The position numbers were made by a program, and so were the translations under genes. From the IMG/VR virus record IMGVR_UViG_3300036987_000045, positions 1 through 55,710 of that record: DNA of 55,710 bases, one strand, 5' to 3'. Within the stretch, counting starts at the first letter, position 1. Each line of letters opens with the position of its first letter. This document shows, in pieces, positions 9,755 to 42,480 of the stretch. A model generated the notes under the pieces. The model was not told the origin of the DNA. It made no database searches and saw nothing but the letters and a program-made list of their open reading frames with translations. This DNA is from a virus. Its lineage: Duplodnaviria > Caudoviricetes.

Positions 9755-10687
9755 ATGCGCCGCACACTGGTAGAATTTGAAGTCACAATGGAACAACTTG
9801 CCAAGATGTTCAGTGGCTCCAACGAACTAACTGTTCGCAGCTGGGAAAAAAGGTGGCTAGACAACGTGGTCGAAAACCTACGCACTGTAACTACACCTAG
9901 GCCCCTTAAGCAACTACTTACAAACGTCAACACTCATGTGGCGTTGTGTTGCGGCGCAGGTCCTTCCTTACGCAAACTGAAGAAACGGGCACCCCTCATT
10001 CCTCCTGAGTGGGGGGTGATCGCTTGTGATTACAGCCTGTTAGCGGTGCTTGAGGTTGGGATCAAACCCTTATTCGTAGTGACGATGGACGGGCATCAGG
10101 AAACCGAGCCAGCGGTTTTAGAGGGCTTTGCTCGCTTGGCTAAGGAGCATCCCGACGTACCAGTAATCGCTGACATTGTCTCCTGTCCCAGTGTCGTTGA
10201 GCAGCTTACCAACCCCTACTTCTTCCGTTCAATGGGGGAACACAGCAACACCCTTAACCGCTACGTCATGCAGCAGTGCCCTCAGATTGACCAAATAGGA
10301 CATGGGGGCAACGTCGGTTCGGTAGCATGTATCCTGGCCAAGTTTTGGTCCTTTGCCAGACACGTAGTCCTCATAGGCTACGACAGCGCCATGCGTGAGG
10401 GTACTTACAAAGAGAACTATTGGAACGGCAAGAACGGGGATGACGATAAGCAGTACGTCGAAGTGTGCGATGTCTACGGTCGCCCCATCATGACGATGGG
10501 CAACCTGCACAACTACAAGTGGTGGCTGGATCATTTCTGCTATATGAACAACGACGTCGAGTGGATCAACGCTAACGATGGCGGGTTCCTCGGCGTGTGT
10601 GGCCCGGATCGTAATTACAATCATTACACTTATTTACCTCTAGAGAAAGCTGTGGAGCACCTTAAGGACCACAGCATTGATGATTAG
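9755..10687 (+). CDS. Maf-family (motility associated factor, DUF115/MAF_flag10) glycosyltransferase
   Basis: ALCCGAGPSL, VIACD, GIKPLFVVTMD, GGNVGS, VVLIGYD and WINAN match the Maf/MptE-like signature series. Confidence 0.85.
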   Translation: MRRTLVEFEVTMEQLAKMFSGSNELTVRSWEKRWLDNVVENLRTVTTPRPLKQLLTNVNTHVALCCGAGPSLRKLKKRAPLIPPEWGVIACDYSLLAVLEVGIKPLFVVTMDGHQETEPAVLEGFARLAKEHPDVPVIADIVSCPSVVEQLTNPYFFRSMGEHSNTLNRYVMQQCPQIDQIGHGGNVGSVACILAKFWSFARHVVLIGYDSAMREGTYKENYWNGKNGDDDKQYVEVCDVYGRPIMTMGNLHNYKWWLDHFCYMNNDVEWINANDGGFLGVCGPDRNYNHYTYLPLEKAVEHLKDHSIDD

Positions 10688-11043: not shown

Positions 11044-11970
11044 ATGTCTCACGTATTACTAGGCGGAACTGGTACTCTAGGCAGAGCAATCACTAAGCTT
11101 TTACTAAGTACGACTCGCGATCGCATCAGGATTGTAGCTCGTAATGAGTACCAGATGGGACAGATGAAGCGTGACTTCCCAAACGACCGCCTAAGCTTCA
11201 TCATTGCTGACGTACGTGACGAAGACCGCCTCCGTCGGGTATTGAGGGATGCGGCCTACGTATATCATATGGCAGCACTGAAGCATGTACACACATGTGA
11301 GTACGATGTGCTTGAGGCGACTAAGACCAACGTTGAAGGCACAGCCAATGTCGTGCGGGCCTGTATAGACACAGGGGTCCTCAAGGCTGTCCTGGTCTCG
11401 ACAGACAAAGCAGTGGAGCCGACTACGTCCTACGGTGCGATGAAGATGGTAGCTGAGCGCATGTTTATCTACGGTAACAGTTACCGTGGCAGCAGCGGCA
11501 ACCCAGCCTTCCACTGTGTACGCTATGGCAATGTGCTTGGCTCCCACGGAAGCGTTGTGGAGGTTTGGCGACAGCGTCAAGCAGACGGAAAGCCCATTGG
11601 ACTATCCGATCCAGAGATCACCCGCTTCTGGTGGACACCCGAGGACGCCGCCGCTTTCGTTATACGCTCCATGGACATATGCAACGCAGGCGACGTACTT
11701 GTACCAATTATGCCCAGCTGCTCGCTAGCTCAGCTAGCTACCCTCATAGCGCCTAAAGCTAAACAGGAAAGGATTGCTGGGTATTCAACTGAGAAGACAC
11801 ACGAAGTACTCATTGCTCCATATGAGCTAGCCCAGACTACCGTTGTCGAGGATATGGCAGCTCTCCGTATCGCTTACCTTCATCCCACTGACGAGACGCC
11901 TTGGTCTGGCAGCTGCTTAAGTAGTCAGGCTGCTGTCTGCGTATCTGATGTTGCGAGGTGCTTAGCATGA
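11044..11970 (+). CDS. pseB: UDP-GlcNAc 4,6-dehydratase, PseB/FlaA1-like (Polysacc_synt_2 SDR)
   Basis: GGTGTLG, HMAALKHV, STDKAVEP, YGAMK, VRYGNVLGSHGSV, TRFW and EKTHE motifs. Confidence 0.9.
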   Translation: MSHVLLGGTGTLGRAITKLLLSTTRDRIRIVARNEYQMGQMKRDFPNDRLSFIIADVRDEDRLRRVLRDAAYVYHMAALKHVHTCEYDVLEATKTNVEGTANVVRACIDTGVLKAVLVSTDKAVEPTTSYGAMKMVAERMFIYGNSYRGSSGNPAFHCVRYGNVLGSHGSVVEVWRQRQADGKPIGLSDPEITRFWWTPEDAAAFVIRSMDICNAGDVLVPIMPSCSLAQLATLIAPKAKQERIAGYSTEKTHEVLIAPYELAQTTVVEDMAALRIAYLHPTDETPWSGSCLSSQAAVCVSDVARCLA

Positions 11971-18553: not shown

Positions 18554-18721
18554 GGGTAAAACAAGAGGAAGAAATGGCAGTCATCCGGGCCAAGCCGCTC
18601 TGGGATCAGTTTGACGGTTAAATGAGGGCGGCGCTCTGGTACAAGGCTAAGGAACGCGCCCAACGCCGGGCGATAAAAGAATTGGGCAGAAGCCATATTG
18701 CAAAGTAAGGGGAGAGGCAAA

Positions 18722-19105: not shown

Positions 19106-19116
19106 GAGGTGCTACC

Positions 19117-19816: not shown

Positions 19817-20100
19817 TGTTTACTTATATTAAGATTGCTGTTCTTGCTGCCGCGGTCACCCTGGGTGCCTATGGTGCGTGGTACATTCAGGGAATACGTC
19901 TAGACAAGCTCAAGGCTGAGATTACAACCTACAAGGCCGAGATCGTATCTTACAAACGGGCAATGGAGATCTACGAACATGATGCCGAACTGGATCAGGC
20001 GATGGCTAAAGAAAAAGACCGGGTTAGCAAGCTTACTCCTGATGAGCTTGATATGGAGTTCGATAAGCTGCGGACCTACGGTAATAGCCCCAAAGATTAA
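19816..20100 (+). CDS. i-spanin (Rz-like)
   Basis: N-terminal TM plus coiled coil; overlapped by a lipoprotein gene. Confidence 0.75.
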   Translation: MFTYIKIAVLAAAVTLGAYGAWYIQGIRLDKLKAEITTYKAEIVSYKRAMEIYEHDAELDQAMAKEKDRVSKLTPDELDMEFDKLRTYGNSPKD

Positions 20101-24312: not shown

Positions 24313-25056
24313 ATGGGACGGATCATCATAACTTCAACCGGGTCAGCGGCAATGCGGGAGACCATCTTTGAGCTGGGTAAGCCTAGTGATATAGGCAACC
24401 GCGTACTGACACAGCGCGCAACGCAGGTTGGTTATGCTGGGTCTAGTACCATGCCGGGGAGGGAGGACCACAGGCATCCGGTGTTTTTGCTCTCTACTGT
24501 AGCGAACGTCAGCTTTCTTACTTCTACAGCTGGTATATCCGAGGGGTTCGCTAGGGGCGACCATGCACACTACGCCACGCCTGCGGGCTTACCCTTTGGC
24601 GGGTATGCTTCCAACGTCTCAGTTCTTACTAGCACGGGTGGCGTTACTAACTTAGCGTCTAGGGCGGATCACGTACATTATCTTAAGCCTGAGGCAACGG
24701 CCTCCAATGTGTCGTGGGGCACTAGTACAGCTGGTGTGTCCAGCAGTGTGTCCCGTGGCGACCACATGCATAGGATACTGCCGGGTGCACGGGTTGATGT
24801 CACCGCTACTAGAGGGACTAGTCAGTTGTATACTAATAATGGTAGTGGACCGATGTGGATAGGCATTTCTGTGGGTATGAGCTCGGTGCCCGCTGATGGT
24901 GTTCATCTAGAGATAGCAGGAGTGGATGTGGCACACGCGGATGCGGCCTTAGGGAACAGCGTCTTTCTCATGGGTATCGCTAATCCCACCGAGGGATATT
25001 TGCTGACCTGTACTGGCGGGGCACATATTGATCACTGGATTGAATATGGAATGTAG
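24313..25056 (+). CDS. Tail fibre/needle-like protein with RxDHxH repeats
   Basis: Four repeats REDHRH, RGDHAH, RADHVH, RGDHMH with Ser/Thr-rich spacers. Confidence 0.7.
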   Translation: MGRIIITSTGSAAMRETIFELGKPSDIGNRVLTQRATQVGYAGSSTMPGREDHRHPVFLLSTVANVSFLTSTAGISEGFARGDHAHYATPAGLPFGGYASNVSVLTSTGGVTNLASRADHVHYLKPEATASNVSWGTSTAGVSSSVSRGDHMHRILPGARVDVTATRGTSQLYTNNGSGPMWIGISVGMSSVPADGVHLEIAGVDVAHADAALGNSVFLMGIANPTEGYLLTCTGGAHIDHWIEYGM

Positions 25057-25071
25057 GAAATAGGAAGCCCT

Positions 25072-25704
25072 ATGAGTCACTTTATTGTTGCTACACCCGA
25101 TACCTTGCGAGAGTTCTGGCGGACACCCCCAGAGGGTAACCGTACCGAGGACTACGCTGGCGTGGGGCCAGAGAGAAGCAGCTTTCTGGTTAACTTGGTG
25201 AATCGCTTGCCGCGTCCTAGTAATATACTAGAGATAGGATGCAATTGCGGACGCAACCTTGAGGCGCTGCGGAAGGCCGGGTACACGGGATTGATGGGCA
25301 TAGACATACAGAACTGCACCAACGCGGTGAAGGAACACTTTCCAGGGCTGGCGTCAGAAGGGAGTTTTTGCTGGGAGCCTGCTGAGGATGTGCTGCCCGA
25401 TATGCCTAGTGACTCGGTAGACTTAATCTACAGCATGGTCGCGTTGACTCACATTCCGCCAACGCAGGCGGAGATAGTAACTAGGGCTATGGCGCGTATC
25501 GCTAGACAGAGCATTATTACGATTGAGGATGAGTACCGTGGATGGCCTTATCACACTGGTGATTGGGCGTTGCGGTTCTTCCCACGTAAGTACAAGGACA
25601 TATTTGAGTCTTTGGGATTTCAGCAAATGATCTATTATGAGGGCTACGAGATTGATCGGGATATTGATCGGTGGTTTACTACTAGAGTATTTACTAGGAG
25701 ATAA
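25072..25704 (+). CDS. Class I SAM-dependent methyltransferase
   Basis: ILEIGCNCGRNL (motif I), GIDI, DLIYSMVALTHI. Confidence 0.88.
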   Translation: MSHFIVATPDTLREFWRTPPEGNRTEDYAGVGPERSSFLVNLVNRLPRPSNILEIGCNCGRNLEALRKAGYTGLMGIDIQNCTNAVKEHFPGLASEGSFCWEPAEDVLPDMPSDSVDLIYSMVALTHIPPTQAEIVTRAMARIARQSIITIEDEYRGWPYHTGDWALRFFPRKYKDIFESLGFQQMIYYEGYEIDRDIDRWFTTRVFTRR

Positions 25705-25706
25705 CT

Positions 25707-26162
25707 ATGGCATACACTATCCGTAAGGCTACTCCTAAGGACGCGGGGATCATTGCCCACATGATGTTGGTGTGGGATGCCGAGTTGCCTAAGCATCTCC
25801 AGATGCTGAACGGAGACGCCCCTCATGCCGAGACCACGGCTAAGGCTATGACGACAAACCCAGAGTTCATCACTGAGGTAGTCGAGGAAGATGGCAAGAT
25901 TGTGGGTATGTATGTGGTGTCTAAGATTGAGGGATTGTTTTGTTCCAAGCCATATGGGATACTTAATGTAATGGTCTATCCCAAGTACCGTGGTGGTAAG
26001 ATGTACGGATTGCGTTTACTGGAGAGAAGTATTAAGGCGGCTAAGGAAGCTGGATTGGCTTGGCTGGAATCGTGTCCATGGGCAGATGCCCACGGGATGC
26101 ACTTTGTGCTTGAGCGACTCGGGTTTAATTTTATGTCCCGAGGCTATGCTCTGAGGTTCTAA
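25707..26162 (+). CDS. GNAT acetyltransferase-like protein
   Basis: IRKATPKD, VYPKYRGG and LERLGF; position before the ejection genes is common in podoviruses. Confidence 0.8.
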   Translation: MAYTIRKATPKDAGIIAHMMLVWDAELPKHLQMLNGDAPHAETTAKAMTTNPEFITEVVEEDGKIVGMYVVSKIEGLFCSKPYGILNVMVYPKYRGGKMYGLRLLERSIKAAKEAGLAWLESCPWADAHGMHFVLERLGFNFMSRGYALRF

Positions 26163-26164
26163 TT

Positions 26165-26947
26165 ATGGGAAGCAAGGGTGGCGGGGCTAAATCGAATGCA
26201 GGCGGTATGCTGAGTATGTCTGGTAGGCAAATTGGGTACAGCCAGCAGTTGGATGAGCTGGCTAATAGGCTGTACAACCAAGCGTTTAATACTCAGCAAG
26301 AATACCAGCGTCCTATATGGGACCAGATCATGGGAGTGTTGGGGTTTGGCACTCAGAATAAGGGAAGCGGGAAGTGGGCTTATCCAGAGGGCGGCGGGCA
26401 AGAGTCATTTGAAAGTAACCTCTTCCAGTTGCCTAAGTTCACTATGCAGAAGCAGGTAGCTGCCGCTAAGAAGAATATCGCCAACACGCCCCTATATGGC
26501 CCTATACAGAAGACTATGCTGAGTGGCGGGGTCGATATTCAAGGTATGCAGGGCTTACAAACCAATGCGCTAAGCACGGTACAGAATCTTATCCAGCAAA
26601 TGATGAGTGCTACCCAGGCCAGCTACAATGCTGATATTGGTGGCGGTCAGGGTCTCAAGGGTCTGTCGCTTAATGCCATGCAAAGTGCTGGACAGATGGA
26701 AGCTGGAGCGGCAGCGGCGCAGCAAAATGCCCAAAGGATAAATATGGAATCGCAAAGCGGAATGTTTAAGGGACTGGGTAGTATTGCTGGGACGCTGTTT
26801 GGGGTTGGTATGGCGGCAATGGGAGGCCCAGCTGGGATGCTTGGTTCGCTTGGTCTTGGTGGAGGAGCCAGCACAATTGGTGCTGCTTCCGCTGCGCCTG
26901 CGGCTGGGGCGGCAATGGACCCCAGTTGGTTCAGTGGCGGATTCTAG
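26165..26947 (+). CDS. Probable ejection/DNA pilot protein
   Basis: MGSKGGG start, Gln/Gly/Ala-rich, hydrophobic Gly-rich C-terminus. Confidence 0.65.
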   Translation: MGSKGGGAKSNAGGMLSMSGRQIGYSQQLDELANRLYNQAFNTQQEYQRPIWDQIMGVLGFGTQNKGSGKWAYPEGGGQESFESNLFQLPKFTMQKQVAAAKKNIANTPLYGPIQKTMLSGGVDIQGMQGLQTNALSTVQNLIQQMMSATQASYNADIGGGQGLKGLSLNAMQSAGQMEAGAAAAQQNAQRINMESQSGMFKGLGSIAGTLFGVGMAAMGGPAGMLGSLGLGGGASTIGAASAAPAAGAAMDPSWFSGGF

Positions 26948-26957
26948 GAGATAGATT

Positions 26958-27947
26958 ATGAGCTGGCTAAATGTAGCTGATTTTGGAACCGGGTTCGCTG
27001 GCGGGACGCTTGCTGGAAGCGAGTTGGTACACAACATAAATAAGGACCGACGGGATCGCCAAAAGCTGGAGCAGGATCAGCTGCTAGGGGCCATTGGTTT
27101 GTTACAGATAATGCCCCAGATTGCTGATCAGAACCCAGACCTGGCTAAACAGCTCTTTGGAGTAGCCCAGCAAATGGGCGGAAAGCCCATGGCTGGAATG
27201 ACACTACCCAGCTTTGACCCTATTGCTGCTGCCGAACGAGGGGCGCTTAAGGAAACCACTGGGCTAAAGGCCAAGATGGACGCGGTTAATAAGATGTTCC
27301 CGCCACAATCCCCGATGTGGTACAACGCTATGGGCTGGCCGGTGCCTAAAGCGGATACGCCAATGGTGAGTACGCCAGTGGGGGATATTCCGGCTAACGT
27401 CGCCTGGCGGTATATGCCCGAGATCATTCAAATGCAGGAGGAAATAAAGGCGTCTGCTAAGGCTAAATATAAGGTTGGAGGGGCTGGTGGAGGGGCTGGT
27501 GGAGGGGCTGGAGGCAAGAACCTGATTCCGTGGATCGTTGACTCCACTAAAGGAATAGCCCCCGGTAATGTGATGTATGCTCCGAAAGATAAGCCCCCCA
27601 CCCCTAACGCATTGCCGATGGTAGGTGCTGTGGGACAGCTTTACGGGCCGCAGATTGAAGAAGAGGTAACGTTATCGCCTATGATTCAAGATAATCTTCG
27701 AGGTATTGCTAAAAAGATTGCTAATGGGAATGCTTCGCCAGTTGACATACAATATTTTGAGCAGCATGGCGGGCAGCTTGGGCCTATGAAGGAAGGCGGA
27801 CTCTTATCCTACAATACTTATCCAGAGGTAAAGTTGCCGCCAATGACGAAGAAGGTCAAGAAGCGTGTCAAGGTTGGCGGTAATGTGCCTTCCCCAAATG
27901 CTGAGGATTATACCGATCCCAATAGGTACATTCAGTCACCATTTTAG
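26958..27947 (+). CDS. Probable internal virion/ejection protein
   Basis: FGTGFAGG N-terminus and position in the ejection module. Confidence 0.6.
   Translation: MSWLNVADFGTGFAGGTLAGSELVHNINKDRRDRQKLEQDQLLGAIGLLQIMPQIADQNPDLAKQLFGVAQQMGGKPMAGMTLPSFDPIAAAERGALKETTGLKAKMDAVNKMFPPQSPMWYNAMGWPVPKADTPMVSTPVGDIPANVAWRYMPEIIQMQEEIKASAKAKYKVGGAGGGAGGGAGGKNLIPWIVDSTKGIAPGNVMYAPKDKPPTPNALPMVGAVGQLYGPQIEEEVTLSPMIQDNLRGIAKKIANGNASPVDIQYFEQHGGQLGPMKEGGLLSYNTYPEVKLPPMTKKVKKRVKVGGNVPSPNAEDYTDPNRYIQSPF
27477..27512 (+). repeat. 12-bp tandem repeat x3 encoding a (GGAG)3 linker
   Basis: GGAGGGGCTGGT x2 followed by GGAGGGGCTGGA. Confidence 0.85.
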
Positions 27948-27956
27948 GAGTATGCT

Positions 27957-29165
27957 ATGGCACCACAAATGCCCCCAGAAGGTACTATTTCGCCTAGTGG
28001 TAAAGGAATCGTTAGAGGCGGTCAGTGGGTACCACTTTCGTCTACTCAAGCACCGGGTCCTGCGGGTAAGGCTGCTGTAGGTGCTGGACCTTTGGTGCCG
28101 CCTCAACTTGGTGGATTCTTGACGCGAAAGGAGACCAATCCTTATACTGGTAAAAGTGCGGTTGAATTAACACCCAGCATAGCTGGTACAGCAGAGCCGC
28201 CTGCAAGTGATCCCATGTTTGCCAATGTTCCTACTATCAGCCCTGGTGCAGCGAAAGCGTTGGGGGGTGGTTTAAGTGCTTTGGGTAAGGGGTTAGAGAT
28301 AGTCGATATACCCTTTAAGCTCTTACATTGGGGTACAGACAAGCTCATACGGCAACCGCTTAGCAAGATCCCGGTTACATCCAAGTCCCCGGTCATGTCC
28401 GAGGGCGTTGGTCAAGCGATGGCAGGAGTGCATACTGGGGACTTCCCAGATAAGTGGTCCAAGAAGGATGTATCTTATCCGCCTATCTCTGAGATTGCTC
28501 CTATAGCTGCTGAGTTTGCTGTGTTCGGCCCTTATACGAAGGCTTTATGGAAGAGCATTAAGGGGTTGGGGCGGATGACTGGTTTGATTAAGACGGCCCC
28601 CGGTATGCCCAAGATTCCTCCTGGGCTAGAGGGTGTTTTGGACAGGCCAGAGATCCTAAGTGAACCGCCTAGCGCTGCGGTTACTAGACGCTTATTAGGT
28701 AAAGCTGCTGCTGAGGAAGGTGTTCCGTTAGCGGCTGATGACATGGGCAAGGTGGCTGGAATTGAGGCCGCAGTCGAGGAGGCGTTGTTTGGGTCTAGGT
28801 CGATACGGCAACATGCGCCAGGCATGGGGAACATAAGCCCTACGCCTCCATCTCCCTTTACTGGGACCAATATACCGCGAGAGAGACTAGGTACGGAGAC
28901 AGCCCAGCTGAAGCGACAAGCAACCGACCCCAACCGGATAAATCGTATGATCAATCCCCCTCCGCCTACACCTACCACGCCTCCATTGGTACCTCCTGCG
29001 GCTAGGGGTATTCGTTATGCGCCAGGGATGGGTAATTTGGACATACCACCAGAGCGCTTTCATGGAGCTGTACCTCAAGAGCGTTGGGGCACCGAGACCG
29101 CTAAGCTGAAGCGTGCTATGCAGAATCTAGAACATATTAATTACTTGATCGGGAACATAAGATAA
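27957..29165 (+). CDS. Probable internal virion/ejection protein with a C-terminal duplication
   Basis: Pro-rich; two APGMGN...ER.GTETA.LKR units. Confidence 0.6.
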   Translation: MAPQMPPEGTISPSGKGIVRGGQWVPLSSTQAPGPAGKAAVGAGPLVPPQLGGFLTRKETNPYTGKSAVELTPSIAGTAEPPASDPMFANVPTISPGAAKALGGGLSALGKGLEIVDIPFKLLHWGTDKLIRQPLSKIPVTSKSPVMSEGVGQAMAGVHTGDFPDKWSKKDVSYPPISEIAPIAAEFAVFGPYTKALWKSIKGLGRMTGLIKTAPGMPKIPPGLEGVLDRPEILSEPPSAAVTRRLLGKAAAEEGVPLAADDMGKVAGIEAAVEEALFGSRSIRQHAPGMGNISPTPPSPFTGTNIPRERLGTETAQLKRQATDPNRINRMINPPPPTPTTPPLVPPAARGIRYAPGMGNLDIPPERFHGAVPQERWGTETAKLKRAMQNLEHINYLIGNIR

Positions 29166-31687: not shown

Positions 31688-32017
31688 ATGAGCATCATCC
31701 GTTTCTACAACGTACCGGCCACGTCAGAATATTTTGCTATTGGAACAGCGTGTTCCGAAGCGTTGACTACAGCCAACTACTACATGTCTACAGGTTATGT
31801 GCGTGGGCAAGGCGCACAATCTGTATTTGGAACGCTGGAGGGCGCTGACCTGCGTTTTAAAATTAACGGTAGCGCCCCCGCAACGAGTTGTGGTCATATC
31901 TGGTACAAGGGAGATTCTATCTTCTTTGACGACCTGGGTATACTGCAAAATCTCCAACTGCTTAACGAAGCAGCGTTGGCTACAGCATACGTACACTTTA
32001 CATACTTCTACGGCTAG
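31688..32017 (+). CDS. Small probable virion protein
   Basis: AAGGAG RBS; LRFKING.AP...GH motif; its stop overlaps the convergent gene's stop in CTAG. Confidence 0.6.
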   Translation: MSIIRFYNVPATSEYFAIGTACSEALTTANYYMSTGYVRGQGAQSVFGTLEGADLRFKINGSAPATSCGHIWYKGDSIFFDDLGILQNLQLLNEAALATAYVHFTYFYG

Positions 32018-32205
32018 TCCTGAGGAGGGGTCGCTGCACTCTCTGGTAGTGGTCCCTCTGGGTAGCCCTCCCAGGGACAGGGTTTGTTATGGTGGCTAGT
32101 GTCGACGGGGCAGTCGCACTTGCCATTTACGTACCAGTAGCATTCATTGATACGCAGGTCCTTAGCAACAGTGAACCAGGGCTTGTAGTTATGACATTTG
32201 TTCAT
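32014..32205 (-). CDS. Small Cys-rich hypothetical protein
   Basis: Coupled to the neuB-like gene; last gene of the minus-strand operon. Confidence 0.5.
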   Translation of the reverse strand: MNKCHNYKPWFTVAKDLRINECYWYVNGKCDCPVDTSHHNKPCPWEGYPEGPLPESAATPPQD

Positions 32206-32996
32206 ACGTATTTACTCCAGCGTTTGCGCCACTCGAGGACATCCGGTCTATCAGGTGGCACATAGTCATCCTCGTAGGAATCCCCGAATACAGGCTGCAA
32301 TTCCAGCGTTCGTACAGTGATCTCACGTAGGTTCTCAACGTCTACGGCACATTGCTGATCCGGGGTCTTGTTGTCCAGTATGTCCTCCTTGAGATGGAAC
32401 TCCAGTTGTTTGGCATCGTAGGCCAGAGCGATGGGCAGGAGATTTTCCCATTCCGGTGTGTGACATGACCAACCAACATAGGGCTGGATCATCATGTCTT
32501 CCATAATGTCGGCCAACAGTGATATGCGACTCATGCAGGCCAGGTCCAGCGGGGTTGGGTACATGGATACGCAATGCATTAGGCATACGCTACCGCTGTA
32601 AGGATCAATCGTCTCGCAGAGCTTAAGCAGCTCGTCCTCATTCATACCACCAGTCGAGATCATTACCGGCAGGCCGGTAGAGCAGCACTCCCGAACCAGC
32701 TCGTAATAGGTGGACTCGACGCTAGCAATCTTCAGTGCTAGGGGCTTACGCGGCAGGGCATAGTCTAGGTCCGCTGGGCAGAAGACGCTAGGTACCCAGA
32801 ACTCTGGTAGGGGCCAGTTGCGGTTAAAGGTCTTCTCACTGAAGAGCTGAATCTTTACTATGGCATTGGCAGAGATAGCGTAGTTGACCAGGCGATCATA
32901 TAGCTTGCGATTGCCTTTGTGGTTCGTGCCCAAGTCAGCGTAGACGTTGATCTGGTCTAGGAGGGGGAGGCCGATGTCTTTGTTGGTGTCGTTCAT
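32202..32996 (-). CDS. Nonulosonic acid synthase, NeuB/PseI family
   Basis: ADLGTNHKG, KIQLF, KIASVE, PVMISTG, LMHCVSMYPTP, VGWSCHT and LEFH; no C-terminal SAF/antifreeze-like domain. Confidence 0.9.
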   Translation of the reverse strand: MNDTNKDIGLPLLDQINVYADLGTNHKGNRKLYDRLVNYAISANAIVKIQLFSEKTFNRNWPLPEFWVPSVFCPADLDYALPRKPLALKIASVESTYYELVRECCSTGLPVMISTGGMNEDELLKLCETIDPYSGSVCLMHCVSMYPTPLDLACMSRISLLADIMEDMMIQPYVGWSCHTPEWENLLPIALAYDAKQLEFHLKEDILDNKTPDQQCAVDVENLREITVRTLELQPVFGDSYEDDYVPPDRPDVLEWRKRWSKYV

Positions 32997-33181
32997 AGCT
33001 CTACTTCCTCCATATTGGCGGTTTTGCTCACGCAGAAGGGACAGACGTAAAAATCATGTTTACTCATTATGTTTTCTACGGTGTAATTACCGAGTGTGTC
33101 TCGCTCCCACTTAGCGATCATATACTTTGCTCCACACTCACACTCGAATGCCATTGGTCTTCCTAGTGTCTGTACGCTCAT
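32993..33181 (-). CDS. Small zinc-ribbon protein
   Basis: CECG...CPFC; ATGA coupling with both neighbours. Confidence 0.55.
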   Translation of the reverse strand: MSVQTLGRPMAFECECGAKYMIAKWERDTLGNYTVENIMSKHDFYVCPFCVSKTANMEEVEL

Positions 33182-33978
33182 ATCGCTACTCCATTGATAG
33201 CGTTCCATGCACGCCATCCGTCAAATAGGCTGGGGGTTACGGTCAGGTCCCAATCCTCGATTGCCTGAAGCCATACCTCAACTACGGTTTGGTAGGACTC
33301 GTTGATTTGGGTGTCGTGGGCCGGGGACTGCCAACTCAATTCCTCACTGCTGCCGTCGGCCATCTGTACCACGATGCCCCGGCGGTACGTCGCGCTGTGC
33401 CAGCCGGATTGGATTGTGGTCAGTACGCCGCTGTGGTGCTTTATCAACATGCTGTATGCGTCCATACTAAGGGACTTGAGTGTAGAACGGGACTCGACGT
33501 GGACACGCTCGGCGGCACCGAAGAGCCATAGGGCCATGTCAACCTCATGGAGATTGATACGCGTTATGCCTTCCTGATAGTAACATGTCTTGCGATAGTC
33601 TGTGTCTCGCCAGCTAGCTAGATCATAGTCAAAGTACAGATGGGCACTGACAATGTGTTTACCAACCAGACGCGTTTCCAGCTCTCGCATAGAGTGTACG
33701 AAGCGCCAGTTGGAGGCGGTCATGTTGGGCACTTCAGCTAAATACAATGTGGGGCTACGATGATATGTTATTGGACCCTCACATAAGATAGGGATGCCTA
33801 AATTGTAGGCATAGTCCAGATGTGCTTCGTGAGCGACAGGCGGACTAGCAATTATCACAGCATCCCTTCGCACAAACGAGTCCCTTGGCCCCGCTATTGT
33901 AGGCTCATGCCCAAGCGTACGCAGTATGCGTTCGTAGCGTTTACCGGCGCTACCGTCCCCTATTACTAAGATTTTCAT
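33178..33978 (-). CDS. Gfo/Idh/MocA-family NAD(P)-dependent oxidoreductase
   Basis: MKILVIGDGSAG, VIIASPPVAH, ILCEGP (EKP variant), NWRF and HEVD..LWLFG. Confidence 0.85.
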   Translation of the reverse strand: MKILVIGDGSAGKRYERILRTLGHEPTIAGPRDSFVRRDAVIIASPPVAHEAHLDYAYNLGIPILCEGPITYHRSPTLYLAEVPNMTASNWRFVHSMRELETRLVGKHIVSAHLYFDYDLASWRDTDYRKTCYYQEGITRINLHEVDMALWLFGAAERVHVESRSTLKSLSMDAYSMLIKHHSGVLTTIQSGWHSATYRRGIVVQMADGSSEELSWQSPAHDTQINESYQTVVEVWLQAIEDWDLTVTPSLFDGWRAWNAINGVAI

Positions 33979-34031
33979 GCTACCCTTCCTTTCCTCTAAG
34001 CATAGATAGAGATCGTTCAAATTTAGTGCAA

Positions 34032-34604
34032 TTAAGACGATTGTAGCCCCGGTGGAGCAGATTTGAAGCGGGAGCCTCTGCCTTGTTCGACTAGCTTCCT
34101 TTTTGCCTCCGCTGAAAGGATTGCGCCCTTTCTGGTTCGACGCGCTCCTACCAATTCACATACCTCTTGTAAAACGGATAGAGGAAATCTTATATCCATT
34201 GTAAAGCGTCCGTCAAACGTAAGGGCTATGGACGCTTCTTTAACTGCGCGGAGAACCTTATTCCCCAATTGCTTGGTTGTATACAGAGTGAATAGCTTGG
34301 CTTTATCATCGAATAGGTAGATGATGCTACCATTCGAGCATAGTATCCACTCGTACCAGTGCAGAGCTTCTTTTTTGAACTCAGGGCGCTCTACGACAAA
34401 GGATGGATCTATCCCCATTCTGTACCTGTACTTGGTCAGCTTTGCCAATGTACCCCACTTACTAGACCAAACCTTCTCTAGTTTCTTCTTCCATAGATAA
34501 TGCTCCGGGGTTTTTCCATCCACAACCTTTGTTAGGATTACACCACCCACATTCGCCTTAATTAGTAGTTCTGGCGTGGCTTCCATACTTCTTCCTCCCC
34601 TCAA
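34032..34604 (-). CDS. Hypothetical basic protein inserted in the sugar cluster
   Basis: 190-aa ORF with a C-terminal LSAEAKRKL; no recognised enzyme motif. Confidence 0.6.
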   Translation of the reverse strand: MRGGRSMEATPELLIKANVGGVILTKVVDGKTPEHYLWKKKLEKVWSSKWGTLAKLTKYRYRMGIDPSFVVERPEFKKEALHWYEWILCSNGSIIYLFDDKAKLFTLYTTKQLGNKVLRAVKEASIALTFDGRFTMDIRFPLSVLQEVCELVGARRTRKGAILSAEAKRKLVEQGRGSRFKSAPPGLQSS

Positions 34605-35199
34605 TCATACGTTTAACTAGTAAGTACTCCTCACTTGTATCCACGCTTATCTTGGCTCGTGGGTCCAATATGCTTACCCGGACACGCTCGACAGGGAGCA
34701 TGGAGTACAGCATCGGCGTAACATGTTCCCTTCCATAAGGACTAGTATCTAGCTCGCTTACCTTCCTGAGAGCGTGTGCCGGGAACAGCTCCATGTCCAA
34801 GCCATCTGGATCAAGTGGGCGGTTGGTGTACAGCGTATCGCTGTCCATGTCACAACGCATAAGGAAGCGCTCGATTAGTTCCTGGGTGAGCATAGGGCAA
34901 TCGGCTGTTAGACGCAGGACCCACTGGAACTCCATATCATAGTACCCCTGCGCCTTGTCCAGAGCAACTATGAATCTGGTCAACACGTCGTCTGGCGTAT
35001 GGTGTGCGGCAAAGGGCACCTTCATGTCCCGGCATATGTCCATGATGATTGTATCTGTAGCCGGACACGCTACGATCTTAGGAAAGGGCGCTGCCTCGAC
35101 TACGTAGCTAAACATAGGCAAGCCGTGTATCGGCAGCAATGCTTTGCCGGGGAGACGAGTGGAGCCTACGCGTACTTGTATAATGCTTAGGACGATCAC
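34558..35199 (-). CDS. Acylneuraminate cytidylyltransferase-like, SpsF/PseF family
   Basis: IIQVRVGSTRLPGKAL, DDVLTRF, RLTADCP, PDGLDMELF, REHVTP and SVDT.EY. Confidence 0.9.
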   Translation of the reverse strand: MIVLSIIQVRVGSTRLPGKALLPIHGLPMFSYVVEAAPFPKIVACPATDTIIMDICRDMKVPFAAHHTPDDVLTRFIVALDKAQGYYDMEFQWVLRLTADCPMLTQELIERFLMRCDMDSDTLYTNRPLDPDGLDMELFPAHALRKVSELDTSPYGREHVTPMLYSMLPVERVRVSILDPRAKISVDTSEEYLLVKRMIEGRKKYGSHARTTN

Positions 35200-35354
35200 T
35201 CTAGTTTACCCCCGTGCCTTATTGCCCACTCCTCAAGCAGCGTTACGCGGGCCTCAAGATCAGCTACGCGTGTCTCCAAAGAGACCTGCTTAGATGGAAG
35301 CGACGCCGCAACGCAGACCAGTACCATGATTATCAAGAACACGATCTTCTTCAT
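35196..35354 (-). CDS. 52-aa membrane-anchored coiled-coil peptide
   Basis: MKKIVFLIIMVLVCVAAS...LETRVADLEARVTLLE; coupled at both ends; not in the ORF track. Confidence 0.6.
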   Translation of the reverse strand: MKKIVFLIIMVLVCVAASLPSKQVSLETRVADLEARVTLLEEWAIRHGGKLE

Positions 35355-35794
35355 GCCTTTCTCCATTCCAATATGACACAGGGTCGGTGTTTAACGATCT
35401 GTGCATCTGCTATCGTGAATCCGCATGTGGTAAACAGGCGTAGGCTATGGGTGTTGCCTACAATTACCGTAGCTTGCAAACGGTCATACTGTCGCTTTAA
35501 GAACTCTATACACTGCTTGCCGTAGCCCTTGCTACGGGCCAAAGGATTTACGGTTATGCCCACGTCGTCACCTATCACCTGCATGATCGCTACTGGCCCA
35601 CTGTCGTTTTCAGCAATACAGATGTCCTCGTTTACAATCGCCCGATGCATCCATTCCCAATGCTTCTCAATTGTTGGGGTTCGGTTCAGGCTCCAGAAGG
35701 CTGTCTGTTGCTCCATGCGCCAGGCATAAAGCATCCACAGATCACTCATACGTACGCGTCTAAACGTTAGGGCTGGGTCTCTCTCCATCGACAT
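35351..35794 (-). CDS. PseH-like GNAT N-acetyltransferase
   Basis: DL..LYAWR, EKHWEW, ARSKGYG and N..SLRLF..CGF. Confidence 0.82.
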   Translation of the reverse strand: MSMERDPALTFRRVRMSDLWMLYAWRMEQQTAFWSLNRTPTIEKHWEWMHRAIVNEDICIAENDSGPVAIMQVIGDDVGITVNPLARSKGYGKQCIEFLKRQYDRLQATVIVGNTHSLRLFTTCGFTIADAQIVKHRPCVILEWRKA

Positions 35795-36852
35795 AATACC
35801 TCCACTAGTCTATGTATTTGATTCCGCGTCTGCGACAACGCCACACTTATCCACCCCGGAAACAAGATCCCCCGATCGAAACAGTATCCAGTCGCGTCAC
35901 GGGTCTGCGACGAGGGAAGCATGACCTCGAAACGCTCGTTTAACCCGTTGGTAGCGAATCCAACATCATGAAGCACATCCCGAAAGAATTGCCCCAGTTC
36001 GCTTAGCTGAGACGGAATAGCAAGCGCACGATACGCTGCCAGCGTACGCATAGCAATGTCCAAGGACGTATTTTCACCATTGTTTGTGCCCGAGAAGTGA
36101 ACCTCGCTGATAAGTTTATCCATGAGAGCCTTCCGTCCAGTACATGCTGATAGAGCCGCTCCCTGGGCCATCGCCTTACCATAGCAATAGAGATCGGCTT
36201 TAATACCAATCGAGTGCATATACCCCCCGAGCGTGTGCCGGTAGCCGAGGATAACTTCGTCGCTAATGAGTACGATCCCGTGCTCATCGCATACCTCCCC
36301 TAAATGCTCCAACCACCCGACAGGCGGTACCTCTATGGATTTGGGCACTGGCTCAACAACGATAGCCGCAACCGACAACGGGGCCATTAGGTCAAGCGGC
36401 TGGCCGAACGGCAACACGATAGCCGGGGTCGGTGGGTACCCGGCTTGATGCCAGCCTATTGGTCCGAACTCTGACGCAGTACCATGGTAGGACTTATCAA
36501 ATATAACTATGTTCTGGCGGCCTGTGGCGGCCCTGGCAAGACGCACGGCACAACTGAGGGCGTCACTACCAGATTTGAAGAAACGCACCGCCTCCGTGCC
36601 CATAGCGTCACAGAATTGGTTAGCAAAGTCGCGTTCGTTCATCCAGGGAAGAGATGCAGCTGGTCGAAACACCGAGCTGAAATAATCATAGCCCAACGTA
36701 TTCGCCCCCAACGCAGAGGCCCAGTCGTCATACTCCTTACCATTGCTGAGCTTAATGACCGAGTCTCGAGCATCCGTAACCCATAGATTCTTAGTCTTGT
36801 CTGGCCAAATAGATCGCTTGCTCGTAGTACTGGTGTTATTGACTAGATGCAT
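35767..36852 (-). CDS. Class III PLP aminotransferase (glutamate-semialdehyde aminomutase-like)
   Basis: YDDW..LG, VRFFKSGSDA..AVRLARA.TGR, SYHG, EPV, LISDEVILGYR and YGKAMAQG. Confidence 0.9.
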   Translation of the reverse strand: MHLVNNTSTTSKRSIWPDKTKNLWVTDARDSVIKLSNGKEYDDWASALGANTLGYDYFSSVFRPAASLPWMNERDFANQFCDAMGTEAVRFFKSGSDALSCAVRLARAATGRQNIVIFDKSYHGTASEFGPIGWHQAGYPPTPAIVLPFGQPLDLMAPLSVAAIVVEPVPKSIEVPPVGWLEHLGEVCDEHGIVLISDEVILGYRHTLGGYMHSIGIKADLYCYGKAMAQGAALSACTGRKALMDKLISEVHFSGTNNGENTSLDIAMRTLAAYRALAIPSQLSELGQFFRDVLHDVGFATNGLNERFEVMLPSSQTRDATGYCFDRGILFPGWISVALSQTRNQIHRLVEVLCRWRETQP

Positions 36853-36880
36853 ATAATCCCCTTATTTGTCAGATTGTTTG

Positions 36881-37174
36881 TCAGATCGCCTCATCCACCA
36901 TCTGCGGAATCATTTCCACCTGCCAATCCTCCAGGGTGATCTCGGCCAGGTGGATCACGGCGTGGGCCATTTCGTGTGCCAGCTGTCGCATATCCGGCTC
37001 GTCCACATAGACAATTATGTTGCTGCCTTGATGGTAATAGGGGACGCGATCACAGAACATAGATGCGACTTCCGGAGAGAACTGGCGGATTTGTGGCATT
37101 GGCGGACAATCTATTACGGTGCCTGTAGCCTGTTCTACAAGGCGGCATACTCTTTACCAAAGTTCTTCGTTCAT
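36881..37174 (-). pseudogene. HExxH metallopeptidase-like gene with an in-frame TAA at codon 7
   Basis: AAGGAG RBS and ATG 37174 read MNEELW*RVCR..., in frame with LAHEMAH. Confidence 0.6.
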
Positions 37175-40221: not shown

Positions 40222-42480
40222 TTATTCCAGCCAGCTGTTGTAACATACCTTAGTCTCCAGAGGAATAGTCAGGGGTTCGCCTCCAACGATTATCTCCCGC
40301 TCAATCACCTCGTGCATCAACGCAACGACAGCATCAATACAGCCCAAAGGACACTCGACAATCAATTCATCGTGGATCTGGAGAAGCAGATACGCACCAA
40401 TCGGTTTGAGTCTTAACCATAACTCCAACAGACCCAAGTTTATGTAGTCCCCAATCGCGGACTGCGGCTCGAATGCGTACGCTGCCCGGAACAGCTCATC
40501 ACCCCAACGCCCAAGGAACAGACGCTTACGCCCAAAGGCAGTTGAGAGGACGCGCTCGTTCTTTTGTAGGCGCTCCCTTACCTTAGCGTGCCACTTACGC
40601 ACCTGAGGGTAGGCCCGGTGGTAGCCTTCCAACAGCGTCTTGCCCTCTTTGTTGGACACCTTAAGGGTTGCTGCTAGTTGGTTGGGTCCTTGTCCGTAGT
40701 TGGAAGCGTGGTTGACGACCTTAGCGATATTGCGGCCCTTACTTCCAGACGGATATTCCGCCTCGCTACCACCAAAGAGAAGCGACGCCGTAAGAGAGTG
40801 GACATCGCGTTGCTCCTTAAACGCCGTTTGCATTGGGCCTTTAACGAGCCAGGCCACATACCTGTTCTCCGCTTGGGATAGGTCACCCTTAACAAAACAC
40901 ATCCCCGGTCGGGGGACAAAAGCTGCGCGTACGTGCTTCGGGATGTTTTGAAGGTTCGTCCCAGCACCATCAACTGCCTCTCTAGAAGAGAGACGACCAG
41001 TAACTGTGCCGCTGACAACGAACTCGGTGTGGATTGCTCCATCATAACTGACCTTAACGCGTTTAAGGTGGCTCGCCGCATCACGCAGTCTCCTCGTTTC
41101 CAACAATAAATCCGCTTCAGTATAGCCTCTAGCTGATAACTTACTCAACGCTTCCTTATCAACGGTCACATTACCCCGCTTACGGTGCGTGATAGACTTA
41201 GCGCCCAACGTCTCGTAGAACAACTCCTTCACTTGCTTGCTAGACTTGACGTTTATCTCCGCACCGACAAGCGTTTCCAGTTCAGTCTGTTTACCTTGGG
41301 CCATATCCAGCGTCTTCTCGATCGCGGCACCTAGCACAGCCTGGTCGATCAGCACTCCACGGTGCTGCATCTCAAACAGACACCGGGTCAGGGGCATTGT
41401 ATAGCCCAAGAAGAAGTCCAGCATACCCATTTCCGCTAGCTCTTTAAGCGCCCACTCATACACTTGATACGTCGCCATGCAGTCACGGGCATTGTATACC
41501 CACGTATCCAGATCCCCATGCTTACGACTGTCAATGGCATAGAAGTTAAGATCGCTGTGCATCGAGGCCAGGAAGTCCAGGTCGTGGGACAACTCTGGGC
41601 ACACTAGATGGTGTGCGTACATCGTATCGAAGAGGGCTGGAGCTGGGAACCCGATCAAAGGCGTAAGGAAGGTAAGGTCGAACTGCATATTCTGAGCGAT
41701 CTTACCAATACCCGGAGTACCAAAGAGCGTTTGCAGCAGGTGCCAAATCGTCGCCTCGTCGGTTGGCGACCACTGGTTACGGTAGCCGTTCTTAAACGGA
41801 ATGACCAGTGCATCATGACCGCTTACTGCCAACCCTAAGCACCGGATACGAGGGCCTAGCGTCTCAATGTCATAGGCAAACGCGCCAGCAGACTTACAAC
41901 GTTCGATGTACGCCTCTATTTCCTCTATACTAGGGTTGAGTGTAATCTTATAGCTAGGCTGAGTGTACCCGTTAATGCTGATGTCCTTAGCTTTTACCAA
42001 GTCACTGATGCCACAGGGGTGTTTACTATACTCCCTCAGGATGGCACTGGGATGAAGCATGGGTACGACCCAGGGACCATCAACCAGCGTACACTGCAAT
42101 ACACTACCCCGCCACTTGGACACTTCCTTCTTGATTCCGGTCAACGCGGTCAATGCCGTCTGCCCCGCAGCCACAATACACGTAGGCTGGACACGCCTAA
42201 CTATTTCCTCTAACCGTGGGTAGAACTCCTCAATTGTATAACCTAGTTCCCCTAGTCTAGCTAGCTCATTCTTCGGGGGGCGTACCGGAACCACGTTGTC
42301 AATGTAGATCTCCTCACGCCTAAGACCAGCTGCGGCGATGAGCTGGTTGAGCAAGCGTCCGGCGCGCCCAACAAATGGCTCACCTCGAGCGACCTCTTCT
42401 TCACCAAGAGCCTCCCCTACGATCATTAGCTTACAAGGGACGGGACCGACCCCGTTGACTTGTTTAGTGCCGCGTACCAT
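40222..42480 (-). CDS. Family A DNA polymerase with N-terminal family-4 uracil-DNA glycosylase and 3'-5' exonuclease domains
   Basis: VGEALG..E...PFVG.AG and LHPS (UDG); DIET and NMQFD (exo); DLSQAE, AKVVNHASNYG and QIHDE (motifs A, B, C). Confidence 0.93.
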   Translation of the reverse strand: MVRGTKQVNGVGPVPCKLMIVGEALGEEEVARGEPFVGRAGRLLNQLIAAAGLRREEIYIDNVVPVRPPKNELARLGELGYTIEEFYPRLEEIVRRVQPTCIVAAGQTALTALTGIKKEVSKWRGSVLQCTLVDGPWVVPMLHPSAILREYSKHPCGISDLVKAKDISINGYTQPSYKITLNPSIEEIEAYIERCKSAGAFAYDIETLGPRIRCLGLAVSGHDALVIPFKNGYRNQWSPTDEATIWHLLQTLFGTPGIGKIAQNMQFDLTFLTPLIGFPAPALFDTMYAHHLVCPELSHDLDFLASMHSDLNFYAIDSRKHGDLDTWVYNARDCMATYQVYEWALKELAEMGMLDFFLGYTMPLTRCLFEMQHRGVLIDQAVLGAAIEKTLDMAQGKQTELETLVGAEINVKSSKQVKELFYETLGAKSITHRKRGNVTVDKEALSKLSARGYTEADLLLETRRLRDAASHLKRVKVSYDGAIHTEFVVSGTVTGRLSSREAVDGAGTNLQNIPKHVRAAFVPRPGMCFVKGDLSQAENRYVAWLVKGPMQTAFKEQRDVHSLTASLLFGGSEAEYPSGSKGRNIAKVVNHASNYGQGPNQLAATLKVSNKEGKTLLEGYHRAYPQVRKWHAKVRERLQKNERVLSTAFGRKRLFLGRWGDELFRAAYAFEPQSAIGDYINLGLLELWLRLKPIGAYLLLQIHDELIVECPLGCIDAVVALMHEVIEREIIVGGEPLTIPLETKVCYNSWLE

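Follow-up and report, generated by a model that had tools for sequence, protein, structure and literature searches.

A candidate viral route to a pseudaminic-acid-type sugar in a complete phage genome that lacks recognisable PseC and PseG

The virus record IMGVR_UViG_3300036987_000045 (Duplodnaviria; Caudoviricetes) carries, on the minus strand between positions 36852 and 32202, a set of genes that, judged from its sequence, is a real, conserved and non-canonical nonulosonate cassette in a phage. The window analysed here is the whole of that record, a genome of 55,710 bp that has direct terminal repeats and a completeness rating of 100%. Nonulosonic acids such as pseudaminic acid (Pse) shape the recognition of bacterial surfaces, and the canonical pathway to CMP-pseudaminic acid, as in Campylobacter jejuni and Helicobacter pylori, runs PseB-PseC-PseH-PseG-PseI-PseF. 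For a Pse-type sugar, the phage appears to have candidates for the first step, N-acetylation, condensation, activation and transfer. Its enzyme set departs from the canonical one much as an earlier note on this DNA had described, with no DegT-type PseC and no PseG but a class III aminotransferase and a protein of the GFO/IDH/MocA fold (hereafter GFO-fold protein). The explanation we favour, and hold tentatively, is that the minus-strand operon, a PseB-like gene and a Maf-like gene amount to a viral pathway, complete in itself, that leads to a CMP-activated Pse-type sugar and in which the class III enzyme carries out the amination.

Six large open reading frames (ORFs) and two small ones wedged between them are packed as an operon at 36852-32202, in the order class III aminotransferase, GNAT acetyltransferase, cytidylyltransferase, a protein without family match, the GFO-fold protein and a 264-residue NeuB-family synthase (Table 1); Pfam searches and the translations bear out the gene content previously described for this region. 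Because all eight ORFs overlap or lie within ~53 nt of each other, they are predicted to form one translationally coupled operon. A ribosome-binding-site-like AAGGGG stands 8 nt upstream of the aminotransferase gene, whose end is overlapped by the first GNAT gene (GNAT1) over 28 nt. No terminator-like site was found on the minus strand inside the operon in a promoter/terminator scan that gave fewer sites than shuffled sequence and is therefore uninformative. Neither of the two small ORFs (35196..35366 and 32993..33217) has a PHROG match.

Table 1. Operon ORFs and candidate pathway genes elsewhere in the window
Feature	Coordinates	Strand	Length	Remarks
Class III (GSAM/HemL-like) pyridoxal phosphate (PLP) aminotransferase	35767..36852	-	361 aa	PF00202 2e-29; first operon gene
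GNAT N-acetyltransferase 1	35351..35794	-	147 aa	Pfam Acetyltransf_3/1/7; phrog_1249 acetyltransferase
Small ORF with hydrophobic N-terminal stretch, unverified	35196..35366	-	56 aa	Between GNAT and cytidylyltransferase
CTP_transf_3 cytidylyltransferase, presumed CMP-ulosonate synthetase	34558..35199	-	213 aa	PF02348 3.3e-17
Protein without family match	34032..34586	-	184 aa from ATG (190 aa from TTG 34604)	Small alpha/beta domain, basic C-terminal helix
GFO/IDH/MocA-fold NAD-binding protein	33178..33978	-	266 aa from ATG 33978 (ORF list: TTG 34020)	PF22725 3.5e-07, PF01408 0.00097
Cys-rich zinc-ribbon-like small ORF, unverified	32993..33217	-	74 aa	Overlaps both neighbours; follows GFO gene
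SAF-less NeuB-family synthase	32202..32996	-	264 aa	PF03102 7.5e-22; last operon enzyme gene
PseB-like UDP-GlcNAc 4,6-dehydratase	11044..11970	+	308 aa	Polysacc_synt_2 1.7e-68; structural-gene arm
Maf/MptE-like protein, presumed nonulosonate transferase	9755..10687	+	310 aa	PF01973 2.5e-19
S-adenosylmethionine (SAM) methyltransferase, possible sugar tailoring	25072..25704	+	210 aa	Pfam methyltransferase domains
GNAT N-acetyltransferase 2	25707..26162	+	151 aa	phrog_1249 6.7e-09; Acetyltransf_1 1.3e-07

The earlier note had confined the pathway to 32202-36852. That boundary proved too narrow, as the PseB-like, Maf-like, methyltransferase and second GNAT (GNAT2) genes sit elsewhere in the genome. 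Among NCBIfam models, the PseB-like protein scores 255.5 bits on PseB (cut-off 407.75) against 171.6 on FnlA, consistent with membership at the family level only, and its best PDB match is 2gn4, a 'UDP-GlcNAc C6 dehydratase' (2.9e-56). Residues 37-215 of the Maf-like protein match PF01973 at 70.1 bits (cut-off 34.6), which places it among proteins with a Maf domain; PF01973 is, we take it, the former DUF115, the domain of Maf flagellin glycosyltransferases. At 310 aa the protein is not a full-length multi-domain Maf (~600 aa) acting on flagellin, such as the 602-aa Maf in one comparison locus (L098). It has no PDB sequence match, and phmmer connects it to Maf-like ORFs in two viral NeuB loci, L067 (2.2e-16) and L050; among the 66 viral loci whose NeuB ORF is complete, 5 also hold a Maf-like ORF.

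The Maf-like gene lies two genes downstream of the major head protein gene and is followed by the PseB-like gene. Because of this position in the head-gene block, and because no flagellin gene is among the gene families recognised in the phage genome, the target of glycosylation is most likely a virion protein. An alternative purpose, DNA hypermodification, was set aside, since nothing connects these genes with DNA and the transferase belongs to the Maf type, which glycosylates proteins. The methyltransferase finds its best NCBIfam match in TIGR03587, the pseudaminic acid biosynthesis-associated methylase (1.5e-08; 35.1 bits against a cut-off of 112). No phage protein matched a PseH-specific NCBIfam model at E <= 0.01; two GNATs are present. 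The methyltransferase and GNAT2 genes stand among virion genes, flanked by four proteins of 247, 260, 329 and 402 aa without family match (24313-29165), which may be further glycan enzymes or ejected virion proteins. As substitutes for PseG these four (24313-25056, 26165-26947, 26958-27947 and 27957-29165) gave no signal, in a comparison of single sequences with a thin five-sequence profile.

The absence of a DegT-type PseC and of PseG was confirmed by six-frame profile searches of the complete 55,710-bp genome. The DegT profile PF01041 gave only a sub-threshold match of 8.9 bits, inside the class III gene, and neither PseG (TIGR03590) nor a NeuC-type epimerase (Epimerase_2, PF02350) was matched anywhere in the genome. 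In control genomes the same searches detected DegT in 14 of 14 cases, PseG in 9 of 14 and Epimerase_2 in 11 of 14.

Under the favoured explanation, the PseB-like enzyme would, by homology, first produce a UDP-4-keto-6-deoxy-N-acetylhexosamine, which the class III aminotransferase would aminate in place of the absent PseC; this role is proposed because the complete genome offers no other use of the PseB product. GNAT1 may then N-acetylate the amine, in keeping with the overlap of the two genes and with an aminotransferase-GNAT fusion in one relative (P0061, 539 aa). The sugar would be freed from UDP by a host activity or, putatively, by the GFO-fold protein, after which the SAF-less NeuB is predicted to condense it with phosphoenolpyruvate (PEP), as its homology and conserved metal and PEP ligands suggest. 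The cytidylyltransferase would, again by homology, convert the product into a CMP-sugar, and the domain and context of the Maf-like protein point to it as the transferase, with the GFO-fold protein, the methyltransferase and GNAT2 as candidate tailoring enzymes. Since these last three lack a canonical role, we lean towards a final sugar other than plain Pse5Ac7Ac, and the claim of a new sugar in the earlier note is plausible but unproven. A bolder proposal, which we rate as rather unlikely, is that the conserved aminotransferase, GFO-fold protein and GNAT, along with GNAT2 and the methyltransferase, yield an undescribed Pse-type sugar in which a third amino group is acetylated or methylated; its synthesis would need neither PseC nor PseG, and the cut-down Maf-like enzyme would display it on the virion. 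That the enzymes act in one pathway is suggested by the operon structure, by gene fusions among relatives and by the recurrence of the set.

To follow this recurrence, 148 loci retrieved with the NeuB alignment were translated and queried with the phage proteins and with seed sequences taken from the loci themselves, and selected loci were scanned with Pfam. Among the relatives closest to the phage, conservation of the cassette is indicated indirectly, because contigs of the same length recur among the relatives of NeuB, of the aminotransferase and of the GFO-fold protein, and the gene order is deduced from this: relatives of all three derive from contigs of 6230, 5996 and 11480 bp, and pairs of the three have contigs of 35995, 3115, 5952, 7704, 5992, 2215 and 2652 bp in common. 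Four metagenome loci (L073, L074, L101 and L127) encode a fusion of CTP_transf_3 and class III aminotransferase of ~685-696 aa that adjoins a SAF-bearing NeuB. The Pfam scan, which among these four covered L073, L101 and L127, found GNAT in L073 and L127; PseB occurs in L101 and L127, and DegT in these two as well as in L073. The order in L127 is DegT, NeuB with SAF, GNAT, PseB, methyltransferase, GFO-fold protein and fusion, and the phage proteins match their L127 counterparts at 1e-60 (PseB), 4.7e-13 (GFO-fold protein), 2.6e-19 (cytidylyltransferase, against the N-terminal half of the fusion), 6.3e-18 (aminotransferase) and 1.5e-14 (NeuB). L101 has a PseI above the NCBIfam cut-off (343.7 vs 340.25), with DegT, PseB and an aldo-keto reductase (AKR) beside the fusion. 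The phage unites in one operon the accessory trio of class III aminotransferase, CTP_transf_3 and oxidoreductase, each homologous to a part of L127; this trio does not stand beside a complete Pse set, as the phage is without DegT and PseG.

A second viral lineage (L031 and L021) carries, in this order, PseB, a GFO-fold protein, a SAF-less NeuB, a GNAT, a family-less protein, a cytidylyltransferase and a class III aminotransferase; no DegT was found in these two records (51.9 kb, 80% complete, and 20 kb, 29% complete). A third viral aminotransferase locus, L046, does carry DegT. In the same locus, positions 17503-19818 encode a 772-aa protein with a C-terminal class III aminotransferase whose first ~530 residues match nothing, and its neighbours include a B12-binding radical SAM enzyme, genes of glycosyltransferase family 2 (GT2), a SAF-less NeuB and a methyltransferase.

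The aminotransferase of the phage has 36 full-length relatives (345-390 aa, 50-67% identity), the next tier being ordinary HemL-like proteins of 420-450 aa at <=35%. Invariant in its family are the PLP-binding Lys of GKA and the Asp of DEVILG. Its best NCBIfam matches are models of glutamate-1-semialdehyde (GSA) aminomutases, far under the cut-off, and the family profile finds its best PDB match in GSAM 5i92 (5.9e-42). The nearest solved relatives are GSA aminomutases, the aminotransferase domain of a lipopeptide synthase and gamma-aminobutyric acid (GABA) transaminases, with no DegT entry and no nucleotide-sugar aminotransferase among the best 60 of 161 PDB matches. Searched by tblastn against phage records, the aminotransferase matched at <=33% identity only, in many cases on records that are bacterial by name or annotation. 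GNAT1 has a homologue in the viral loci L021 and L031 (~1e-13). The cytidylyltransferase exceeds the Pfam cut-off for CTP_transf_3 and has its best PDB match in 6oew, a 'Cytidylyltransferase' (1.4e-12); in NCBIfam it reaches 44.6 bits on a KdsB-type model and 22.1 bits on PseF (TIGR03584, cut-off 205.7), both far under the cut-off.

The kinship of the aminotransferase with GSA aminomutases, GABA transaminases and a lipopeptide synthase domain, together with the weak and generic scores of the GFO-fold protein, would fit a view in which the aminotransferase and the oxidoreductase act on non-sugar substrates, such as an amino-acid-derived acyl group or general metabolites, and are linked to the pathway by position only. 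We regard this as highly improbable: the genes overlap translationally with sugar genes, four loci encode the aminotransferase fused to a cytidylyltransferase and one encodes it fused to a GNAT, and clusters from viruses, from metagenomes and from published bacteria repeatedly hold it together with NeuB-family genes.

The synthase matches PF03102 at 78.4 bits (cut-off 22.1) over profile positions 77-238 only, and, as had been observed before, its 264 residues contain no Pfam match to SAF. The altered motifs previously pointed out are present in the translation as VGWSCHT and QLEFH; their counterparts in the aligned PseI of C. jejuni are GLSDHS and IEKH, which means that the phage protein keeps both His and loses the Asp. 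Its family comprises 18 relatives of 187-279 aa at 40-71% identity, all metagenomic. K48, Q50, K89, E94, STG114-116, H179, E199, H201 and D213, which we take to be the PEP and metal ligands, are invariant in 15-18 sequences. Approximately 30 residues are missing after the second strand, and the family has an invariant C-terminal motif of its own, PDRxxVLxWRKRW. An AlphaFold2 (AF2) model (pLDDT 89.7) retrieved NeuB, PseI and SpsE structures as all of its top Foldseek matches, led by 6ncs and C. jejuni PseI 8h2c (TM ~0.75), with KDO8P and DAHP synthases far behind. The best of these, 6ncs, is a 290-residue NeuB chain of Leptospira borgpetersenii (E 3.2e-14, TM 0.75), with which the phage profile aligns over chain residues 27-284; the two differ in sequence (21% identity) and in the C-terminal PDRxxVLxWRKRW helix that is the phage family's own. 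Barrel fold, conserved residues and a metal site of two His and a Glu thus place the protein in the NeuB family (PF03102). The lack of SAF, which the earlier note had treated as a special trait, turned out to be common: 40 of 66 complete viral NeuB-like ORFs are shorter than 300 aa, a count biased by a retrieving query that was itself SAF-less, and the solved 6ncs chain has 290 residues.

The profile scores of the synthase lean slightly towards PseI. With the family profile, PseI reaches 120.8 bits, SpsE-type proteins 88-93 and Neisseria meningitidis NeuB 71-72, and the best PDB match is PseI 8h2c (5.4e-34). All 15 of 15 family members match the NCBIfam models for PseI (best 9.5e-29) and NeuB (8.1e-25), both far under the cut-off; on the PseI model TIGR03586 the phage protein scores 62.6 bits against 340.25 and, without SAF, it falls outside PseI membership proper. 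A tree was built from 102 sequences, namely 18 family relatives and 84 locus ORFs that were left of 102 complete ORFs of 240-400 aa from the 148 loci after copies sharing >60% of 5-mers had been dropped. Its 'PseI_cut' and 'NeuB_cut' groups each include one row just under the cut-off (L002, 332.2, and L105, 382.9). Here, the phage family forms one clade (SH-aLRT 100, stem 0.87) whose nearest neighbour is the SAF-less viral L052. The phylogenetic placement proposed in the earlier note therefore separated the synthase from the PseI and NeuB clades and assigned it no substrate, and the tree held no labelled LegI reference; as a means of assigning the synthase to PseI, LegI or NeuB, the tree fails, the family being a separate, long-stemmed clade. 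For NeuB, tblastn against phage records gave one match, at 26.6% and on a bacterial record, and a scan with the NeuB alignment found only IMG/VR relatives at <=40% identity (<=37% over ~100 residues) and metagenome contigs at <=36%.

This position of the NeuB family outside the PseI and NeuB clades, grouped with other SAF-less sequences, is what would be expected if the product were not a Pse at all and NeuB used another sugar or sugar phosphate, its product then being oxidised, aminated, acetylated and CMP-activated while the PseB-like gene serves another glycan. Other SAF-less NeuB loci do pair with a dehydrogenase and a cytidylyltransferase, several of them without PseB or DegT, and in the phage the PseB-like gene is far from the operon. 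Nonetheless, a non-Pse ulosonic acid seems quite improbable to us. The phage shows no recognisable phosphatase, isomerase or other enzyme that could start such a route; the second viral lineage has PseB directly upstream of the GFO-fold gene and NeuB; the inventory in common with L127 includes PseB at 1e-60; and profile scores favour PseI over NeuB.

The GFO-fold protein carries a GDGSAG Rossmann motif and a conserved His and has 19 relatives at 41-74% identity. Its gene most likely starts at ATG 33978, as these relatives measure 261-301 aa. Its profile matches inositol dehydrogenases and other entries of the GFO family, at best at 1e-15. In 15 of 15 rows of the phage family, EGP replaces the family motif EKP, whose Lys is presumably catalytic in GFO-family enzymes; the homologue in L127 has EKP and that in L031 QKP. 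Because the substitution is conserved, it would be a feature of the family rather than damage. In a still bolder variant of the new-sugar proposal, this Lys-less protein would not be a tailoring dehydrogenase at all and might replace PseG, releasing the sugar from UDP by a transient, NAD-dependent oxidation with elimination. Several of its relatives have an N-terminal zinc-ribbon-like extension with KCPKCGY, and the phage instead has its separate 74-aa Cys-rich ORF.

The conserved Gly makes ordinary dehydrogenase chemistry doubtful, and this bears on the proposal of the earlier note, namely that the GFO-fold protein, the class III enzyme and a GNAT add an acetamido group to a nonulosonate or CMP-nonulosonate while the host supplies PseC and PseG. 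We consider it possible but less probable than a viral route that dispenses with PseC. To our knowledge, no such triamino sugar has been described. The proposal would also require of the host precisely the two enzymes that the phage is missing, although PseB, N-acetyltransferase, synthase and cytidylyltransferase would all be duplicated by the phage, and DegT is absent from two unrelated viral lineages. On the other hand, the trio accompanies a Pse set with DegT in bacterial-type loci (L127 and L101), the phage has two GNATs, and the oxidoreductase family varies (GFO, AKR and short-chain dehydrogenase/reductase, SDR) while the aminotransferase is constant, which fits an alcohol-to-ketone step that feeds a transaminase. 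In the accessible parts of the respective papers, flagellin islands of Aeromonas carry the same extras beside pseC and pseG (PMC7874193), and the remodelling of C8 by EpaA and EpaB sets a precedent for cytidylyltransferase-linked redox tailoring (PMC12053666). An oxidation-transamination-acetylation sequence remains a reasonable reading of the tailoring part, because fusions and recurrence, including that in the second viral lineage, link the class III enzyme, the oxidoreductase, the GNAT and the cytidylyltransferase; its basis in the enzyme families of 8-amino-Kdo (Kdo8N) synthesis was wrong, as set out below.

A further suggestion had been that ORF 34032-34604 supplies the missing hydrolase. 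We reject it, as the protein has no family match, no invariant column and no PDB fold match. Counted from its ATG (34032-34586), it has no match in Pfam, PHROG or NCBIfam and 41 relatives among 1.84 billion representatives, mostly of 135-200 aa, with a common core of ~130 residues and a basic tail, AGARRKRxLS. Across 30 aligned sequences not a single column is invariant, let alone one with a polar residue, and only W, F and R are nearly so; hhalign against the PseG profile gave a probability of 0.09%. The structure prediction that had been proposed was run (AF2 pLDDT 78.9) and found no Foldseek PDB match at E <= 0.001. The closest clusters in the Atlas consist of hypothetical proteins and are listed as chiefly viral, and the ORF product may not be an enzyme at all.

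Several points weigh against a self-contained viral route in which the class III enzyme stands in for PseC. No UDP-sugar hydrolase was found in the phage genome, and five family-less phage proteins reached probabilities of 0.06-0.11% in hhalign against the PseG profile, which, being built from five sequences, makes this a weak test. The NCBIfam equivalog cut-off is reached by none of NeuB, the PseB-like protein and the cytidylyltransferase; in the tree, the phage family lies outside the clade of three sequences above the PseI cut-off; and the PseB-like gene is ~20 kb from the operon, on the opposite strand. We know of no class III enzyme that acts on a nucleoside diphosphate (NDP)-4-keto sugar, and the nearest solved relatives of the phage aminotransferase, among the best 60 of 161 matches, are GSA aminomutases. 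Its fusion to the cytidylyltransferase in L073, L074, L101 and L127 hints at a late step, and DegT is also present in 5 of 7 aminotransferase-bearing metagenome loci within the stretch covered. Because the class III enzyme accompanies DegT in metagenome loci and, in the part of the paper available, in the Aeromonas islands (PMC7874193), its ancestral role was probably not the PseC step. The main weakness is therefore that in cells this enzyme occurs alongside PseC, not in its stead, and is joined by fusion to the pathway's final enzyme, observations that the tailoring idea fits better.

Beyond the loci already described, five viral or metagenome loci (L010, L015, L020, L071 and L146) combine a SAF-less NeuB with a dehydrogenase of the D-2-hydroxyacid family (2-Hacid_dh) and CTP_transf_3, accompanied by GT2 in all but L010, by a NeuC-type epimerase in L010 and by a GT29 sialyltransferase-like protein in L015. 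Three viral contigs (L052, L017 and L018) have a large terminase like that of the phage (~1e-42 to 1e-45) along with NeuB-like genes, and L052 also has a NeuC-type epimerase and a Maf-like phmmer match. Finally, L115 encodes at 3763-6219 an 819-aa protein in which a flavin amine-oxidase-like domain is fused to a full NeuB with SAF; its neighbours are a class III aminotransferase, an SDR, a cytidylyltransferase and a B12 radical SAM enzyme.

The genome as a whole is laid out in two arms. The plus-strand arm (~117 to 32,017) encodes small and large terminase, a P22/SU10-type portal, the major head protein (8182-9141), two SU10-adaptor-like proteins, a beta-helix protein, a lysozyme-like protein and an internal virion protein, and the minus-strand arm encodes a family A DNA polymerase, a primase/helicase-like protein, a Sak4-like protein, an exonuclease and a DNA methyltransferase. 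The polymerase (40222-42480, 752 aa) has an N-terminal domain of the uracil-DNA-glycosylase superfamily and a 3'-5' exonuclease domain in the same chain, and a 733-aa protein with an AAA/STAND-like ATPase domain (49456-51657) matches phrog_10440, of unassigned function, at 1.3e-74. No tRNA gene was found in the 55,710 bp, and no integrase is among the gene families recognised. Megablast of 32000-37000 against 50,697 phage records gave zero matches, and no relative of the phage turned up when IMG/VR was scanned with the aminotransferase alignment, the Maf-like protein and the major head protein.

The cytidylyltransferase, class III aminotransferase and oxidoreductase extras occur in many bacterial Pse clusters with no assigned chemistry. 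With six enzymes and a single transferase, and with neither PseC nor PseG, all in a complete genome of 55.7 kb, the phage is a compact test system for them, and it could show whether Pse-type sugars arise without two textbook enzymes. If the sugar is indeed carried on the virion, a coat resembling sialic acid would join the few cases in which phage particles are known to be glycosylated, among them that of mycobacteriophage virions, reportedly described by Freeman et al. in 2023. Our literature search, which did not extend to subscription journals, found no paper on a phage-encoded nonulosonate pathway used on the virion.

Compared with the canonical Pse pathway, the phage shares a PseB-type dehydratase, a GNAT, a NeuB that by profile score is nearest to PseI, CTP_transf_3 and a Maf-family domain. 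It differs in the absence of a DegT-type PseC, of PseG and of SAF, and adds a class III aminotransferase, the GFO-fold protein, a methyltransferase and a second GNAT. With the Kdo8N system of Shewanella, on which the earlier note had modelled its proposal, it has only chemical logic in common, that is, the oxidation of an ulosonic acid hydroxyl followed by transamination. KdnA had been taken for a class III enzyme, which is incorrect: the Kdo8N transaminase structure 5k8b matches a DegT query at 2.8e-45 and is absent from the best 60 of 161 PDB matches of the class III profile. KdnB, in the accessible part of its description, is an Fe-dependent alcohol dehydrogenase (cd08184) and not a GFO/IDH/MocA protein (PMC5125639), so that an Fe-dependent dehydrogenase and a DegT-like KdnA face a GFO/IDH/MocA protein and a class III enzyme in the phage, with no homology between the pairs.

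A phage-borne counterpart comes from Acinetobacter baumannii prophages, whose EpaA (CTP_transf_3 plus AKR) and EpaB (SDR) convert Pse5Ac7Ac to its 8-epimer, according to the portion of the paper at hand (PMC12053666). Common to both are nonulosonic acid remodelling encoded by a phage and the coupling of a CTP_transf_3 domain to oxidoreductases. EpaA and EpaB, in contrast, need the host's psaA-F, modify the host capsule, use AKR and SDR reductases and come, in that portion, without an aminotransferase, a synthase or a Maf.

Further likenesses are found in cellular clusters. In the O-antigen block of Legionella pneumophila Sg6/Sg12, the available part of the report lists GNAT, PseG, class III aminotransferase and cytidylyltransferase in a row (PMC3694923); this block and the metagenomic fusion loci bring the same enzyme families together in one cluster as the phage does, whereas the fusion loci differ in having DegT, a NeuB with SAF, a fused aminotransferase and a GFO-fold protein that keeps EKP. 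Group I polar flagellin islands of Aeromonas are given, in the part of the source consulted, as pseB-pseC-(aldo/keto reductase)-pseF-(class III aminotransferase)-pseG-(pseH)-pseI plus maf-1, with two subgroups that lack pseG (PMC7874193). In the sections consulted of these three papers (PMC7874193, PMC3694923 and PMC12053666), the class III enzyme is assigned no reaction. The Aeromonas islands resemble the phage in having Pse genes, a Maf, a gene of the reductase type and, beside the cytidylyltransferase gene, a class III aminotransferase, and differ from it in keeping pseC and mostly pseG, in having an aldo/keto instead of a GFO/IDH/MocA protein and in being cellular and serving flagellin. 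The composition of the phage operon is thus unusual and not unique, as class III aminotransferase and oxidoreductase extras have already been seen in bacterial Pse clusters, and the phage cassette is a stripped-down viral version of the bacterial arrangement that joins Pse genes to a cytidylyltransferase, a class III aminotransferase and an NAD oxidoreductase.

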